Source: Shigella phage S2_02 | Strand: one strand, 5' to 3' | DNA length: 50,597 nt | Sequence record: OQ223306 | Shown: positions 18,414 to 23,225 of the stretch, piece by piece | Position numbering within the stretch: the stretch's first letter is position 1 | How the letters are laid out: every line of letters starts with the position of its first letter | Program-made: the position numbers and the translations under genes | Notes under the pieces: generated by a model | The model's input: the letters and a program-made list of their open reading frames with translations, nothing else | What the model was told of the DNA's origin: nothing | The model's database searches: none

Positions 18414-18801
18414 GTTATCAGCGGCGGCGCGAGCCGCTTTTCTATCAAAGTACAGGGACTTTCCTCACTACATGGAAAACAGAAATTTCACACCGCCTAA
18501 GGATGGCGGTATGTGGCTGAGGTTCAACTACATTGAAGGGGATACGCTTTATCTATCCATTGACAGAAAGTGTAAATCTTACATCGCAATCGTTCAGATC
18601 GGCGTAGTGTTCCCGCCAGGATCAGGAGTTGATGAAGCAAGATTGAAAGCAAAAGAGATTGCTGATTTTTTCAAAGATGGTAAAATGCTTAACGTTGGTT
18701 ATATTTTCGAGGGTGCAATTGTGCATCAAATTGTTAAACACGAAAGCGGATGGATGATTCCGGTTCGCTTTACAGTACGAGTAGATACAAAGGAGACTTA
18801 A
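18403..18801 (+). CDS. putative tail terminator protein (132 aa)
   Basis: ORF track; synteny immediately before major tail protein. Confidence 0.4.
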   Translation: MHYELSAAARAAFLSKYRDFPHYMENRNFTPPKDGGMWLRFNYIEGDTLYLSIDRKCKSYIAIVQIGVVFPPGSGVDEARLKAKEIADFFKDGKMLNVGYIFEGAIVHQIVKHESGWMIPVRFTVRVDTKET

Positions 18802-18803
18802 TT

Positions 18804-19472
18804 ATGCACTTACCAAATGGCGCACAAATTTTCGTGGAAACCTCTCGCGGAGAAGAGATTGAGGCAACCGCTATTACTAACGCAGCAAATCCTGTTGCTA
18901 CAGTTGCATCTAAGGGGGACTTAGTAAAAGGTGATTACGTTATTGTAACTCAGTCAACCTGGGCAAAGATGGTTAGTCGAGTGCTAATTGTTACTGACGC
19001 TAAGGAAACAAGCATCACTCTTGCTGGGATTGACACCTCTGATACTCTTGTTTTCCCGGCTGGCGGTACGATGAGCTTTGCAAAAATTACTGGCTGGACT
19101 GAGATTCCTTGCGTACAGGAGATTGGTCAGGACGGCGGCGAGCAGCAGTATTATACTTATCAGTGCTTGTCCGACGATAAAGAACAGCAGATCCCAACGT
19201 TTAAATCTGCAGTCTCGCTAACGTACACTTTCGCGCACGAATTTGATAACCCGATCTACCCGATTCTGCGTAAGCTTGATTCGTCTGGTCAGGTGACAGC
19301 GGTTCGAATGTACGTTCCGAAAGCGAGCGAAATGCGTATGTGGGCTGGCATCTTGTCGTTTAACGATATCCCATCCACGCAGGTTAACGAAATGGAAACG
19401 GTGGAACTCGACGTATCCCTGAAAGGTGACTTTACTTTCATTTCCTCCACTCTGGCATCTCCTGGTGCTTAA
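18804..19472 (+). CDS. major tail protein (222 aa)
   Basis: ORF-track frame 18750..19472; ATG 18804 has SD AAGGAGA; position before chaperone and tape measure. Confidence 0.6.
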   Translation: MHLPNGAQIFVETSRGEEIEATAITNAANPVATVASKGDLVKGDYVIVTQSTWAKMVSRVLIVTDAKETSITLAGIDTSDTLVFPAGGTMSFAKITGWTEIPCVQEIGQDGGEQQYYTYQCLSDDKEQQIPTFKSAVSLTYTFAHEFDNPIYPILRKLDSSGQVTAVRMYVPKASEMRMWAGILSFNDIPSTQVNEMETVELDVSLKGDFTFISSTLASPGA

Positions 19473-19484
19473 ATCATATCCATA

Positions 19485-19510
19485 GGGGGCTTGCGCCCCC
19501 TTGTTCATTT
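19485..19510 (+). terminator. Hairpin after major tail gene (weak U tract)
   Basis: GGGGGC-ttgc-GCCCCC followed by TTGTTCATTT. Confidence 0.45.
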
Positions 19511-19565: not shown

Positions 19566-19585
19566 AACCAATCAGGAGAAACATC

Positions 19586-19903
19586 ATGGCTAAATTCAAT
19601 TTCGTGTTGGGCCAGCTTCCAGACTTCAAACTTCCGGTGACGTTCACCATGCCAAACGGCGAGGATGCGACTATTATTTTTACAGTACGCCACCTTTCCA
19701 GTAAAGAAGTGCAAGATATGTATGCAAAGCAGGGCGAAATGAATGATAGCGATTTCATCACTAAGATCGCGTCAGGCTGGAATCTGGAAGAAGAATTTAA
19801 CGAAGAGAATGCGCGTAAACTGGTGCAGTATTATCCTTCCGCAGCATACAATCTGACGGCAACTTACATCAAGGCGCTCGCCGGACACCGCGCAAAAAAC
19901 TAA
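19586..19903 (+). CDS. tail assembly chaperone (G-like) (105 aa)
   Basis: ORF track; position before tape measure; ends at TAA directly after slippery heptamer. Confidence 0.7.
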   Translation: MAKFNFVLGQLPDFKLPVTFTMPNGEDATIIFTVRHLSSKEVQDMYAKQGEMNDSDFITKIASGWNLEEEFNEENARKLVQYYPSAAYNLTATYIKALAGHRAKN

Positions 19904-20220
19904 AAAGGGCGGTTTATCTGTTATATCAGAAACCGCCAACAGAAGAGCAATTAAGATCGGTTGGCCTCAGTCTTTCTGACTATGAAGACGAGGAACCGGA
20001 AACGATAATCGGCGATGCTGAAATGGTGAAGGCGTGGAATGTTTTTACGTCAATGCTCACTCAGTGGAGAAGTTCAGGCGCTGGAGCTTATGGTCTTGAC
20101 TATAATGTTTTGCCTATGTTGTTCAAAATCTATAAAATAGAAGATGAAGAACTGGCATTGCAGGACGTTAGGATCATGGAAGCGAAAGCGCTTGAAATGA
20201 TTGCTAAGCAAAACAACTAA
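19586..20220 (+). CDS. tail assembly chaperone frameshift fusion product (G-T-like)
   Basis: -1 shift at 19894-19900 joins 19586 frame to frame of ORF 20023..20220 with no intervening stop. Confidence 0.6.
19894..19900 (+). other. -1 programmed ribosomal frameshift slippery heptamer A_AAA_AAC
   Basis: X_XXY_YYZ heptamer in chaperone frame immediately before its stop; -1 frame is open to 20220. Confidence 0.65.
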
Positions 20221-20242
20221 GCCGCCGTTTGGCGGTTTTTTC
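20221..20242 (+). terminator. Hairpin + T-run between chaperone and tape measure genes
   Basis: CCGCC-gttt-GGCGG followed by T6. Confidence 0.45.
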
Positions 20243-20258
20243 GTATATAGGGGGTTAT

Positions 20259-23225
20259 ATGGTTGATAAGGTAGCAGGTCTATCTCTTGACGTTGACGTG
20301 TCAACAGTTCAGCGCGCGGTCAAGTCACTGAAAGAGTTTTCAAGGGCCAACGACCAGGCCGCTGATTCTATGGGTTCTTTAATCAATGAGGCCGAGGTTG
20401 CAAAACAGAAGGCTAAAGAACACGCAGAGCAACTCAAGCGACAGAGAAAAGAGTACGAAGCGGTAGAGAAAGCAATCGATCCTACAGTTGCAAAAATGGA
20501 GAGGTTAAAAGTTACTTCCCAGCAGCTTGATAAACTCTGGCAGCAAGGCGTTATTCCAGATGACACGTTTTTCCGTTTAGGTGAAATGCTTGAGACGCAG
20601 AATAACGCGCTCATCAAGTCACGCTCTATGTTGACAGTGGAGGGGCGTGCTGCGGCGGAGAATGCCAAGCAGAAAGCCAGGGCCAAAGTTGATGCTGATA
20701 ACTTCATTCGAAGCCTTGAGCGTCAAGCTCAAGCGGCTACGATGACGAAGCAAGAAATGCTTGAGCTTAGGGCGGCTGAGTTGGGCGTATCGGACAAAGC
20801 GTCTCCTTTGATTTCTAAGTTAAATCAGCAAACGGAAGCATTCAAACTCAGCGGAATCTCAGCGGGTCAATACCGAAACGCAATGAAGATGCTACCTGCG
20901 CAGATTACTGATGTTGTAACATCAATGGCGACTGGGATGCCGATATGGATGGTTGCCATCCAGCAGGGCGGACAGATCAGCGATTCATTCGGCGGAATTG
21001 GTAACGCGATGCAGTTAGCGAAGGATGGCGTGATTGATTATATATCATCTATTACAGAGCTTAAATCAGCATTCGCAGATGTAAGAACCTTGGGTCAAGA
21101 TGCGATTGCCAGATTCGGACGTGCGGCAACGATTTTCGGCGGCGGCATTTTCACAGCGGTTGCTGCTATTGGTTATGCGGCTTACTCCTCATACTCTGAG
21201 CTGAGTGAGCTTCAAAGAGCTATCGTTCTGAGCGGTGGATATGCGGTTCAATCAGCGGCTGAAATGGATACATTGACCGATTCGATCACCAAAAACAGCA
21301 AGGGAAGCGGAGGAGCGGTTAAGGATATCGCTGCATCCATGGCTAAGTCTGGCAAGTACACATCCGATCAAATCAAAATCATCACCGCATCCACTGCGGA
21401 TTGGGCGACAGTAACAGGAACAAGCGCAGATAAGATCATTGCGGAGTTCGATAAGATTGCAAAAGATCCGGTTAGCGGACTGGCGGAGTTAAACAAGACA
21501 TATAACTTCCTAGAGAAAGGCCAGTTAACATACATCAACAATCTTAAGAAAACGGAAGGTCAAACTGCGGCGGTTACTGCTGCGACGAAAATTTTCGCCG
21601 ATGTAATGGATGATCGAATTGAAAAGCTTGCGGAATCAGCAAACCCACTAGAGAAAATGTGGTGGAATATCAAGAAATGGTCTAGCGACGCGTGGGATTC
21701 CGTTTCCGACAGGACGCTAGGGGCGCTAAATCTGATCACCGATGTAGTTGCTGGCACGCTTGAGCAGGTCAAGGTTATCCTCAACTATGGCGATCAGTAC
21801 ATTGGGGAGTTCGTCATTTCAGCTACAAAGGCGATGCAAGGGATTCCTGGTATGGGAACTTTCGGTCAATCGGTGATCGACGAGCAGCAGAAAATTGTTG
21901 ACGCAGCCAAAAAACAAAACGATGAGTTGTCAAAATCCATCGCAGAGCGAGACGCTAGGATCAGAAAGGGGGAAATGGGCTACTCGGAAGCGAGCAAGAA
22001 TGAGAAGGTAGGAGACGGTTATTCGTCAAAAACAAAAGACGCTGTAGACAAAGAGGCCGAGGCTCTAAAAAAAGTAAACAAGGAAAAGAAATATTCAGTA
22101 GATCAGGGGAATAAAATCACCGATCAGTACGAAATGGATATTGTCGCCTTGCAGTCTCAGCTAAAAGTACTGCAGGAGCATAAGACCATCAACGACAGCA
22201 TCAGCCATCAGCGCAAAACGCAATGGAACGAGCAAGCGCGGATACTGATTCTGGAGGGTATCGCGGCGGATCAGAAAAGTAGAGCGCTGACGCAGGAAGA
22301 GAAATCAATCCTTTTAAACAAGGCCAAGATTCTAGACCTTGCGGAACAGAAAGCGGTGTTGGGGGATCAGATTGTTAAGCAGCAGCAGTTGAACGATCTT
22401 ACCGATAAATCACTGAAATTTGTTAATGATTTTACGGCAGCTACAGAGCGGCTAAACGCGTCTCGCGGGATGAGCACCCGAGAAATGGAACGGCAAGCTG
22501 AGTTGGCTAAGATCACCACTGATTATATTAATGCAGGTGGCAGCGAAGGAGACGAGAAACTTCAGAACATGATTAAGGCGCAAAATGATTACTACGCTGC
22601 GGAAGATGCCAAGCGAGCTGACTGGTTGGCAGGTGCTGAAAGTGCTTTTGCTGATTACGGTGATGCAGCAATGGATATGTACGGCAATGTTAACGAGATC
22701 GCGTCAAGTGCCCTTAACGGAATGTCAGATATGATGGTTCAATTTCTAACCACAGGAAAAGCGAACTTTGAGGACTTTGCGAAAAATATCATCGGCATGA
22801 TTATAAAGATGATTGCTCAGATGGTAATCTTCAATACGATCTCAGGCATGATGGGCGGTAAGACGTGGAGCTTTGCTGGAGGGGCGTCGTCTGGTGCTTC
22901 TGCGGCATCACAGGCAACCCCTACGCCTGCTGCTTCTGTTTTTAGATCTGTATCTTCCGGCGGGGCCGCTGTATCACTTGCTGCCGCAGCGGGTAGCGTG
23001 GCAACCTCTGGATTCAACGCATCAAACTCGGCGCCAAAGGTGGTAAACCATTCAGGAGGTGGAACAGTCGTTGATGTAAGTGGCATGGAGGTGAGAGTTG
23101 ACAACGGTTCAGATCCGAGGGGGATTTCTCAGGGTGTAGAAATGATGTTCAAAAAAATGATTCGTGAGTCTTGTTCGCAGGGCGGCGAGGTTTATAATTA
23201 CATTCAGGAAAAAACAGGAGGTTAA
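20259..23225 (+). CDS. tail tape measure protein (988 aa)
   Basis: ORF-track frame 20229..23225; ATG 20259; long Ala/Gln/Lys-rich protein with C-terminal Gly/Ala/Ser-rich hydrophobic region, downstream of G/GT. Confidence 0.85.

Follow-up and report, generated by a model that had tools for sequence, protein, structure and literature searches.

The G/GT system of phage lambda (Levin 1993; Xu, Hendrix & Duda 2004, 2013, 2014) provides the model for the type of tail chaperone cassette considered here, and it is used in this work in the form in which it is summarised in a review (PMC5009743). A 2017 paper gives lambda, P2, L5, TM4, phiC31, HK022 and HK97 as the confirmed cases. Tail chaperone frameshifting in the Acinetobacter siphovirus Loki (gp12/gp13) is, like the case described below, predicted only, and Loki belongs to an unrelated phage lineage. 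The closest described system is that of phage T1. Its GenBank record (AY216660) contains a joined CDS (18872..19506), labeled 'tape measure chaperone, frameshift product', beside the short chaperone (CPTT1_038/CPTT1_039; AAP49960.1, frameshift product AAP50000.2). The feature is therefore already known, because it is annotated in T1, the type phage of the genus. Joined CDSs are also found in the records of TLS (tfmS), Stevie and Pocis76, and in those of U136B, LL5 and Sazh, whose 210-aa proteins belong to the same protein cluster, and the genome announcements of Stevie and U136B mention the frameshift. Several other annotations, such as tfmB in TLS and gp42 in SH6, present the extension as a separate gene. 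The literature searched contained no experimental demonstration of the fusion for any T1-type phage.

The stretch of DNA that was analyzed, referred to here as the window, consists of 50,597 nucleotides of Shigella phage S2_02 (OQ223306) and was assigned to the genus Tunavirus of the Drexlerviridae. The best match over 20 kb was Shigella phage SH6 (94.6%), and the 1-kb region around the chaperone cassette showed 97-98% nucleotide identity to T1, Lg3, JMPW2 and SH2. Approximately 100 nt around the proposed frameshift site, including the heptamer, the stop codon and the downstream hairpin, are identical in T1 and in the window, and the two fusion proteins differ at one amino acid over the predicted 211 aa. 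The gene order is the same in both phages, and in both a terminator precedes the tape measure gene. No substantive difference from T1 was seen, and the window represents another Tunavirus.

Pfam matches support the order tail tube, chaperone, extension and tape measure, with all of these features on the plus strand. The 5′ neighbor of the cassette is the major tail (tube) protein gene (18804-19472; Phage_tail_3, E=9.4e-70), whose start at 18804 was deduced from the 669-nt CDS annotated in T1 and from the internal ATG of the ORF at 18750-19472. Between the tube and chaperone genes, the consensus scan identified a terminator-like, G+C-rich hairpin of 7 pairs, 6 of which are GC, followed by a T-rich tail (19484-19501). 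The whole fusion coding region occupies 19586-20220 and is predicted to encode a long chaperone of 211 aa, in agreement with the joined CDSs of the relatives. The 3′ neighbor is the tape measure protein gene (20259-23225; TMP_2, E=3.4e-53; Tape_meas_lam_C, E=8.4e-26), and its ATG is preceded by a GGGGG Shine-Dalgarno sequence. A second terminator-like hairpin, with 8 pairs and a T-run, was detected by the same type of scan between the chaperone and tape measure genes (20219-20238); at the corresponding position, T1 has an annotated rho-independent terminator. When the window was scanned in full for Rfam families and tRNA genes, no matches were obtained.

The first gene of the cassette, which is the analog of lambda G, lies at 19586-19903 and consists of 105 codons and a TAA stop codon. 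Phage_TAC_4 (PF08748) covers residues 1-105 of its product with an E-value of 2.6e-37 and a score of 128.2 bits, compared to a curated cut-off of 21.1, and the protein matches PHROGs 569 and 17368. A Shine-Dalgarno sequence, AGGAG, is located 7 nt 5′ of the ATG at 19574-19578, where the T1 record annotates a ribosome binding site at the equivalent place. The duplex of this region with the anti-Shine-Dalgarno sequence was calculated at -7.4 kcal/mol, compared to a window median of -2.2 kcal/mol. Judged from sequence and comparison, the phage is a T1-like siphovirus, and this gene can be assigned with confidence to its short tail assembly (tape measure) chaperone. Single-sequence AlphaFold2 models of the chaperone and of the extension had pLDDT values of 47 and 49, respectively, which are too low for a fold search. 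Sequence matches of the fusion in the PDB to a proteasome alpha subunit were rejected because they were at chance level (E≥0.08). Tail assembly chaperones (TACs) reportedly have a spiral-forming fold, which is attributed to Pell et al. 2013.

The gene terminates in GCA AAA AAC TAA, with the four codons at 19892-19894, 19895-19897, 19898-19900 and 19901-19903. The preliminary description of this locus had placed the heptamer A_AAA_AAC (19894-19900) in frame directly before the chaperone stop codon, and this can be read from the sequence; the heptamer has the X_XXY_YYZ phase, and the zero-frame TAA abuts it. If a ribosome slips by -1 at this point, the next codon that it reads is CTA at 19900, so that the -1 frame passes through the stop as CTA-AAA (Leu-Lys). 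The -1 frame then remains open for 106 codons (19900-20217) and ends in TAA at 20218-20220, and these codons and their stop (19900-20220) make up the analog of lambda T. The length of 106 open codons had been correctly described earlier, but the accompanying statement that the frame is open up to the tape measure gene does not hold: the frame ends 38 nt before the ATG at 20259, and the terminator-like hairpin at 20219-20238 lies between the two. In the other direction, the same frame is open upstream to 19819.

Several lines of evidence indicate that this extension is protein-coding from its beginning. DUF1799 (PF08809) matches residues 24-101 of the extension (E=2.7e-12; 47.2 bits compared to a cut-off of 26), and PHROG 17368 matches both parts of the cassette in tandem, with the chaperone at positions 1-107 of the 213-position profile and the extension at positions 109-212. 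Because that profile covers the first protein and then the second, it must have been built from proteins that were already fused. A comparative set of 49 related loci (42 unique sequences) was assembled from GenBank phages and IMG/VR, covering Tunavirinae, Tempevirinae, Braunvirinae-type, Rtp-type, Nouzillyvirus and Webervirus phages, and the reading frame was examined by the per-column entropy at each codon position. In the 42 unique sequences, the entropies at codon positions 1, 2 and 3 were 0.68, 0.53 and 1.43 for the body of the chaperone in frame 0, 0.58, 0.44 and 1.26 for 19903-20022 in frame -1, and 0.69, 0.40 and 1.18 for 20023-20217 in frame -1. At the heptamer, frame 0 thus gives way to frame -1 in the codon periodicity of these Drexlerviridae sequences, and the pattern in 19903-20022 indicates that the 41 codons between the stop codon and the first ATG of the extension, at 20023, are coding.

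These results bear directly on whether the extension could be translated by itself, from the ATG at 20023 or from a non-canonical start further upstream, as a 65-aa protein that is never joined to the chaperone. An ORF with an ATG does exist at 20023-20220, and as noted above several deposited genomes call the extension ORF a separate gene. However, the ATG has no Shine-Dalgarno sequence, and its calculated pairing with the anti-Shine-Dalgarno sequence (-2.1 kcal/mol) equals the background median of the window. The 41 codons that precede this ATG show the -1 coding periodicity in the 42 unique sequences, and the DUF1799 match includes some of them, since it begins at residue 24, which is 18 codons before the first ATG at residue 42. 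A start within those 41 codons is not available in the window either: between 19819 and 20022 the -1 frame contains no ATG, GTG or TTG, and the TTG that serves as the start of an 89-aa version in some records is TTA here. Independent translation of the extension is therefore very improbable. The overlap of the two frames is only 37 nt long in Pocis76 and TR2, which means that the frame change must fall within the last 12 codons of the chaperone gene. Taken at the level of sequence and comparison, the conserved coding stretch 19900-20217 can be entered only by a -1 frame change in the last codons of the chaperone gene.

To place the heptamer in context, the window was surveyed for ORFs of at least 80 aa, and the 93 ORFs obtained were searched for X_XXY_YYZ heptamers in which Y is A or T. 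There were 43 such heptamers in phase, and in 15 of the 93 ORFs the -1 frame was open for at least 100 codons beyond the stop codon, in most cases as a result of overlap between the stop and the next gene. Neither an in-phase heptamer nor an open -1 frame is therefore rare in this window when taken alone. Among the real genes, A_AAA_AAC at 19894-19900 was the sole heptamer that abuts the stop codon and is followed by a -1 extension of more than 100 codons. A heptamer on the minus strand that also has a long -1 extension was dismissed since it lies in a shadow ORF opposite a real gene. The combination of the heptamer with the stop codon and the long extension, a coding stretch that has no start of its own, and conservation across the family is beyond chance.

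Of 28 unique site sequences, 25, from Tunavirinae, Tempevirinae, Braunvirinae-type, Rtp-type and Nouzillyvirus phages, have AAAAAAC-TAA without any change, while the flanking codons diverge. Positions 19894 and 19900, which are synonymous, do not vary, compared to entropies of 1.5-2.0 at the neighboring third positions. In the remaining three, a different lysine slip motif (A_AAA_G or A_AAG) occupies exactly the same position; the site reads GCA AAA GTC TAA in Klebsiella phage KingDDD and GCA AAG GTC TAA in IMG/VR loci L047-L051, which provide two unique sequences (L047 and L049). The zero-frame stop codon is TAA in all 42 unique sequences. Position 19902 never varies, although a G at this position would keep both the stop codon (TGA) and the leucine codon of the -1 frame (CTG).

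The position of the site, the chaperone domain, the coding extension that lacks a start, and the conservation of the heptamer in phase together support the programmed -1 frameshift that was proposed in the preliminary description. Ribosomal frameshifting by -1 at A_AAA_AAC (19894-19900), giving rise to a fusion protein of 211 aa, is thus very probable on the evidence of these sequences.

The same fusion could also arise, by standard translation, if RNA polymerase slipped on the run of six A residues at 19894-19899 and added an extra A to some of the mRNAs. The run is present at the site, an inserted A leads into the same reading frame, and the extra A would encode a Lys-Lys junction. Four deposited fusion proteins, those of T1, Pocis76, Stevie/LL5 and TLS, were checked by exact-sequence look-up, and all contain this Lys-Lys junction (...AKKLKR...); the junction predicted by tandem slippage of two tRNAs is Lys-Asn (...AKNLKR...). 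The Lys-Lys residues of the deposited proteins are an annotation convention and not a measurement. E. coli RNA polymerase requires approximately nine or more A/T residues for slippage (PMC5009743), so that a run of six is short. Conservation of the run in a defined codon phase is needed for ribosomal tandem slippage only, and slippage by the polymerase requires neither the invariant C at 19900 nor a hairpin at a spacing of 7 nt. In addition, only 3-4 A residues are present at the site in relatives whose sequence there is AAAGGTC or AAAAGTC. In view of the short run, the conserved codon phase and C 19900, and the 3-4 A residues of these relatives, polymerase slippage appears to be a most unlikely source of the fusion.

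A ribosomal shift may, on the other hand, involve only the tRNA in the P site, with the adjacent stop codon rather than the hairpin as the main stimulator. This could occur in two ways. The tRNA-Lys on AAA could slip before the A site is filled, which results in a Lys-Lys junction, or the tRNA-Asn could slip during the slow decoding of the TAA in the A site, which results in Lys-Asn. The invariant TAA touches the heptamer in every relative, and the fixation of position 19902 in spite of the TGA/CTG option is what would be expected if the stop codon takes part. The relatives with A_AAG_GTC or A_AAA_GTC can use no other route, and the clades that have no hairpin retain the heptamer and the stop codon. 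Against a single-tRNA slip as the principal mechanism, the full heptamer, including C 19900 and A 19894, is kept in 25 of the 28 unique sites, as tandem slippage requires. The single-tRNA mechanism, a variant of the main explanation with which the sequences are also compatible, is regarded as unlikely, but it is a considerably more serious alternative than slippage by the polymerase, and tandem slippage on A_AAA_AAC is preferred.

Downstream of the heptamer, a stem-loop is predicted at 19908-19937, 7 nt 3′ of the slip site, with a minimum free energy of -15.9 kcal/mol. Its two stems, GGCGGUU/AACCGCC and UCUG/CAGA, are accompanied by a UA bulge, and the loop has 6 nt. When the same peptide was recoded synonymously 5000 times using the phage's own codon usage, only 0.04% of the recodings reached this stability (mean -6.6, sd 2.7), and the same test gave p≤0.004 in 17 of 28 unique lineages. 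Within the 25 unique sequences that bear the hairpin, the third codon positions in the stem had a mean entropy of 0.32, compared to 0.89 at 94 downstream third positions (permutation p=0.0002), and the stem codons GCG, CTG and CCG were invariant. A hairpin with a different 3′ arm is formed at this location in P818 and in KingDDD. A spacing of 6-7 nt between heptamer and hairpin is the classical one. From the folding, the recoding test and the conservation, it is inferred with moderate confidence that this candidate structure stimulates frameshifting.

The structure may, however, have no stimulatory role, and its conservation may reflect codon preference and shared ancestry, or another function of the RNA such as mRNA stability. 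The stem-loop is missing in 11 of the 28 unique lineages. Among these, BubbaBully (in which the encoded peptide is the same), the Rtp-like clade and TR2 retain both the heptamer and the stop codon. The evidence from covariation is weak, since 3 pairs with double changes were found in the stem, which on that count was no better than shuffled controls. GCG, CTG and CCG are preferred codons in E. coli, so that codon bias may account for part of the synonymous conservation. These observations have to be weighed against the rarity of equally stable recodings (0.04%), the approximately three-fold lower variability of the stem third positions relative to the 94 others in the same 25 sequences, the P818 and KingDDD hairpins with their different 3′ arms, and the classical spacing. 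No T-run follows the stem-loop on the plus strand, which means that it is not an intrinsic terminator. A role as a terminator for the minus strand, suggested by a T-rich run in the complement, was rejected because the scan did not flag it and the neighboring genes are all on the plus strand. A stem-loop that plays no part in stimulation is a distinct possibility, but it is considered less probable than a stimulatory one.

The slip site itself provides a possible reason for the presence of a stimulator. According to the review by Atkins et al. (PMC5009743), frameshifting in E. coli occurs far less readily on A_AAA_AAC than on A_AAA_AAG. A weak heptamer is consistent with a low level of shifting that may benefit from a stimulator, and the stem-loop probably pauses the ribosome and raises the frequency of slippage at this poor site. 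An upstream element of the Shine-Dalgarno type was also looked for approximately 10 nt 5′ of the heptamer, and no conserved element was present among the relatives. The window has only a GGA at 19883-19885, which is a glycine codon whose third base is free to vary (entropy 1.97).

The lambda cassette is the system with which the earlier description had equated this locus, and the comparison holds in some respects and fails in others. In both cases two overlapping ORFs are located between the major tail and tape measure genes (V and H in lambda), the second ORF, read in the -1 frame, lacks a separate start, and an in-phase X_XXY_YYZ heptamer is present near the end of the first ORF. The mechanism and the synteny are therefore those of G/GT, while the protein families, the sequence similarity by BLASTP and the type of slip site are not. 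BLASTP comparisons of the window proteins gave E-values of 2.5 with lambda G and 0.3 with T, which represents no similarity. Lambda G and T are assigned to Phage_TAC_2 (PF06894) and Phage_tail_T (PF06223), whereas PF08748 and PF08809 were the only families matched by the window proteins. The two products are also smaller, at 105 and 211 aa compared to 140 and 279 aa in lambda. The lambda slip site, G_GGA_AAG, lies five sense codons before the stop codon of G, whereas A_AAA_AAC in the window touches the stop, and the candidate downstream hairpin is a feature of the window in this comparison. The cassette is predicted to work in the same way as lambda G/GT, and it is a member of the chaperone family of the T1 type.

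The dnaX gene of E. coli provides a second comparison. Its frameshift signal consists of A_AAA_AAG, an upstream Shine-Dalgarno-like element and a downstream stem-loop. The window resembles dnaX in having an A-rich lysine heptamer, in relying on the single tRNA-Lys of E. coli, and in the presence of a stable stem-loop 6-7 nt downstream. It differs from dnaX in that the heptamer ends in C and not in G, so that the tRNA in the A site is tRNA-Asn, and in that it does not have the conserved upstream element. The outcome of the shift is also different, because the shifted frame lengthens the protein in the window and truncates it in dnaX.

By analogy with lambda, most ribosomes that translate the chaperone gene would terminate at the TAA (19901-19903), yielding the protein of 105 aa. 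The remaining, less numerous ribosomes, in which AAA is occupied by tRNA-Lys and AAC by tRNA-Asn, would slip one base back on A_AAA_AAC, continue with CTA AAA AGG and the codons that follow, and add 106 residues, which include the DUF1799 domain, to form the 211-aa fusion. In T1-, TLS- and related phages the stem-loop at 19908-19937 probably pauses the ribosome and increases the frequency of this event, and that frequency would set a fixed, low ratio of the long form to the short form. If the lambda model applies, the N-terminal part common to both forms would coat the tape measure protein, the C-terminal extension would recruit the tail tube protein, and neither form would be retained in the virion. 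The role of the cassette in tail length and tail assembly would then be the same as that of lambda G/GT.

What the present analysis adds to the known annotation is modest, namely the family-wide evidence for the switch of frames, a downstream hairpin that is restricted to certain clades, and the question of whether the junction contains Asn or Lys. Taken together, the differences among the relatives can be read, tentatively, as one family with several tunings of the same event. Under this reading, T1- and TLS-like phages would combine a weak heptamer with a selected hairpin and an invariant, adjoining TAA, the Rtp-like phages would use the heptamer and stop codon after losing the hairpin or without ever having possessed it, others would depend on a single-tRNA slip at A_AAG-type sites, and the actual junction residue (Asn or Lys) might not be the one given in the databases.

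The main value of these findings lies in correct annotation. Many Drexlerviridae records list the extension as an ORF of 65 or 89 aa or as a hypothetical protein, and the annotation of the window should, like that of T1, include the joined chaperone of 211 aa. [quoted passage not shown] By analogy with lambda, tail assembly in these phages is expected to depend critically on the ratio of the long chaperone to the short chaperone. The family, in which the hairpin is present or absent and the heptamer alternates with A_AAG, constitutes a small natural series that may be used for studying how the efficiency of frameshifting is tuned in E. coli.

Tandem slippage on the heptamer A_AAA_AAC (19894-19900) is predicted to yield a Lys-Asn junction (...AKNLKR...), whereas all four of the deposited fusion proteins that were looked up in the protein collection, namely AAP50000.2 (T1), QVW27739.1 (Pocis76), YP_009148721.1 (Stevie) and YP_001285532.1 (TLS), are written with a Lys-Lys junction (...AKKLKR...). 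Such joined coding sequences are present in few records only, and in most deposited Drexlerviridae genomes the -1 extension is annotated as a separate ORF. In the related loci, which are designated here by L numbers, this separate ORF is annotated either from an ATG, with a length of 65 aa (window-equivalent 20023-20220; L002, L003, L006, L007, L009 and L012), or from a TTG, with a length of about 89-99 aa (window-equivalent 19951-20220; L004, L008, L010, L013, L020 and L021); the window has TTA in place of this TTG. The separate ORFs of the GenBank relatives are frequently named 'hypothetical' or 'tail length tape measure protein', and the separate-ORF records are likely to be mis-annotations.

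Position 19902 was unchanged across the 42 unique sequences. In the TAA stop codon this base is the middle one, and in the -1 frame it is the last base of the leucine codon CTA, which is rare in E. coli; a G at this position would keep both the stop (TGA) and the leucine (CTG). Judged from the aligned sequences, this suggests that 19902 is constrained by the frameshift signal or by termination efficiency.

On the minus strand, the hairpin at 19908-19937 resembles a terminator, as its complement precedes CTTTTTAGTTTTTT, the sequence complementary to the slippery run. No minus-strand terminator was flagged at 19908-19937 by the terminator scan and no minus-strand gene is located near it; the terminator-like appearance is probably a by-product. 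The chaperone gene is also flanked on both sides by plus-strand terminator-like G+C hairpins with T-rich tails, one located 3′ of the tail tube gene (19484-19501) and the other overlapping the extension stop, with the tape measure ATG 20 nt further on (20219-20238). In phage T1, the counterpart of the latter hairpin is annotated as a rho-independent terminator. The two hairpins could reduce transcription in steps, first between the abundant tube protein and the chaperones and then between the chaperones and the tape measure.

Two relatives were irregular. The slippery run of Citrobacter phage HCF1 (L016, UNVERIFIED_ASMBLY; around 700-720) consists of five A instead of six, which if real would leave both frames permanently fused, and L036 contains indels within the chaperone gene (around 1040-1120). 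Homopolymer or assembly errors are the most likely source of both irregularities.

Klebsiella phage KingDDD (L019:1018-1027) and five IMG/VR loci (L047-L051:1106-1115) carry GCA AAA GTC TAA or GCA AAG GTC TAA at the heptamer position. These sites contain no X_XXY_YYZ heptamer; their lysine slip motifs (A_AAA_G, A_AAG) are all of the single-tRNA type. Because these loci carry single-tRNA motifs instead of the heptamer, different slip-site types seem, from sequence comparison, to occur within one phage family.
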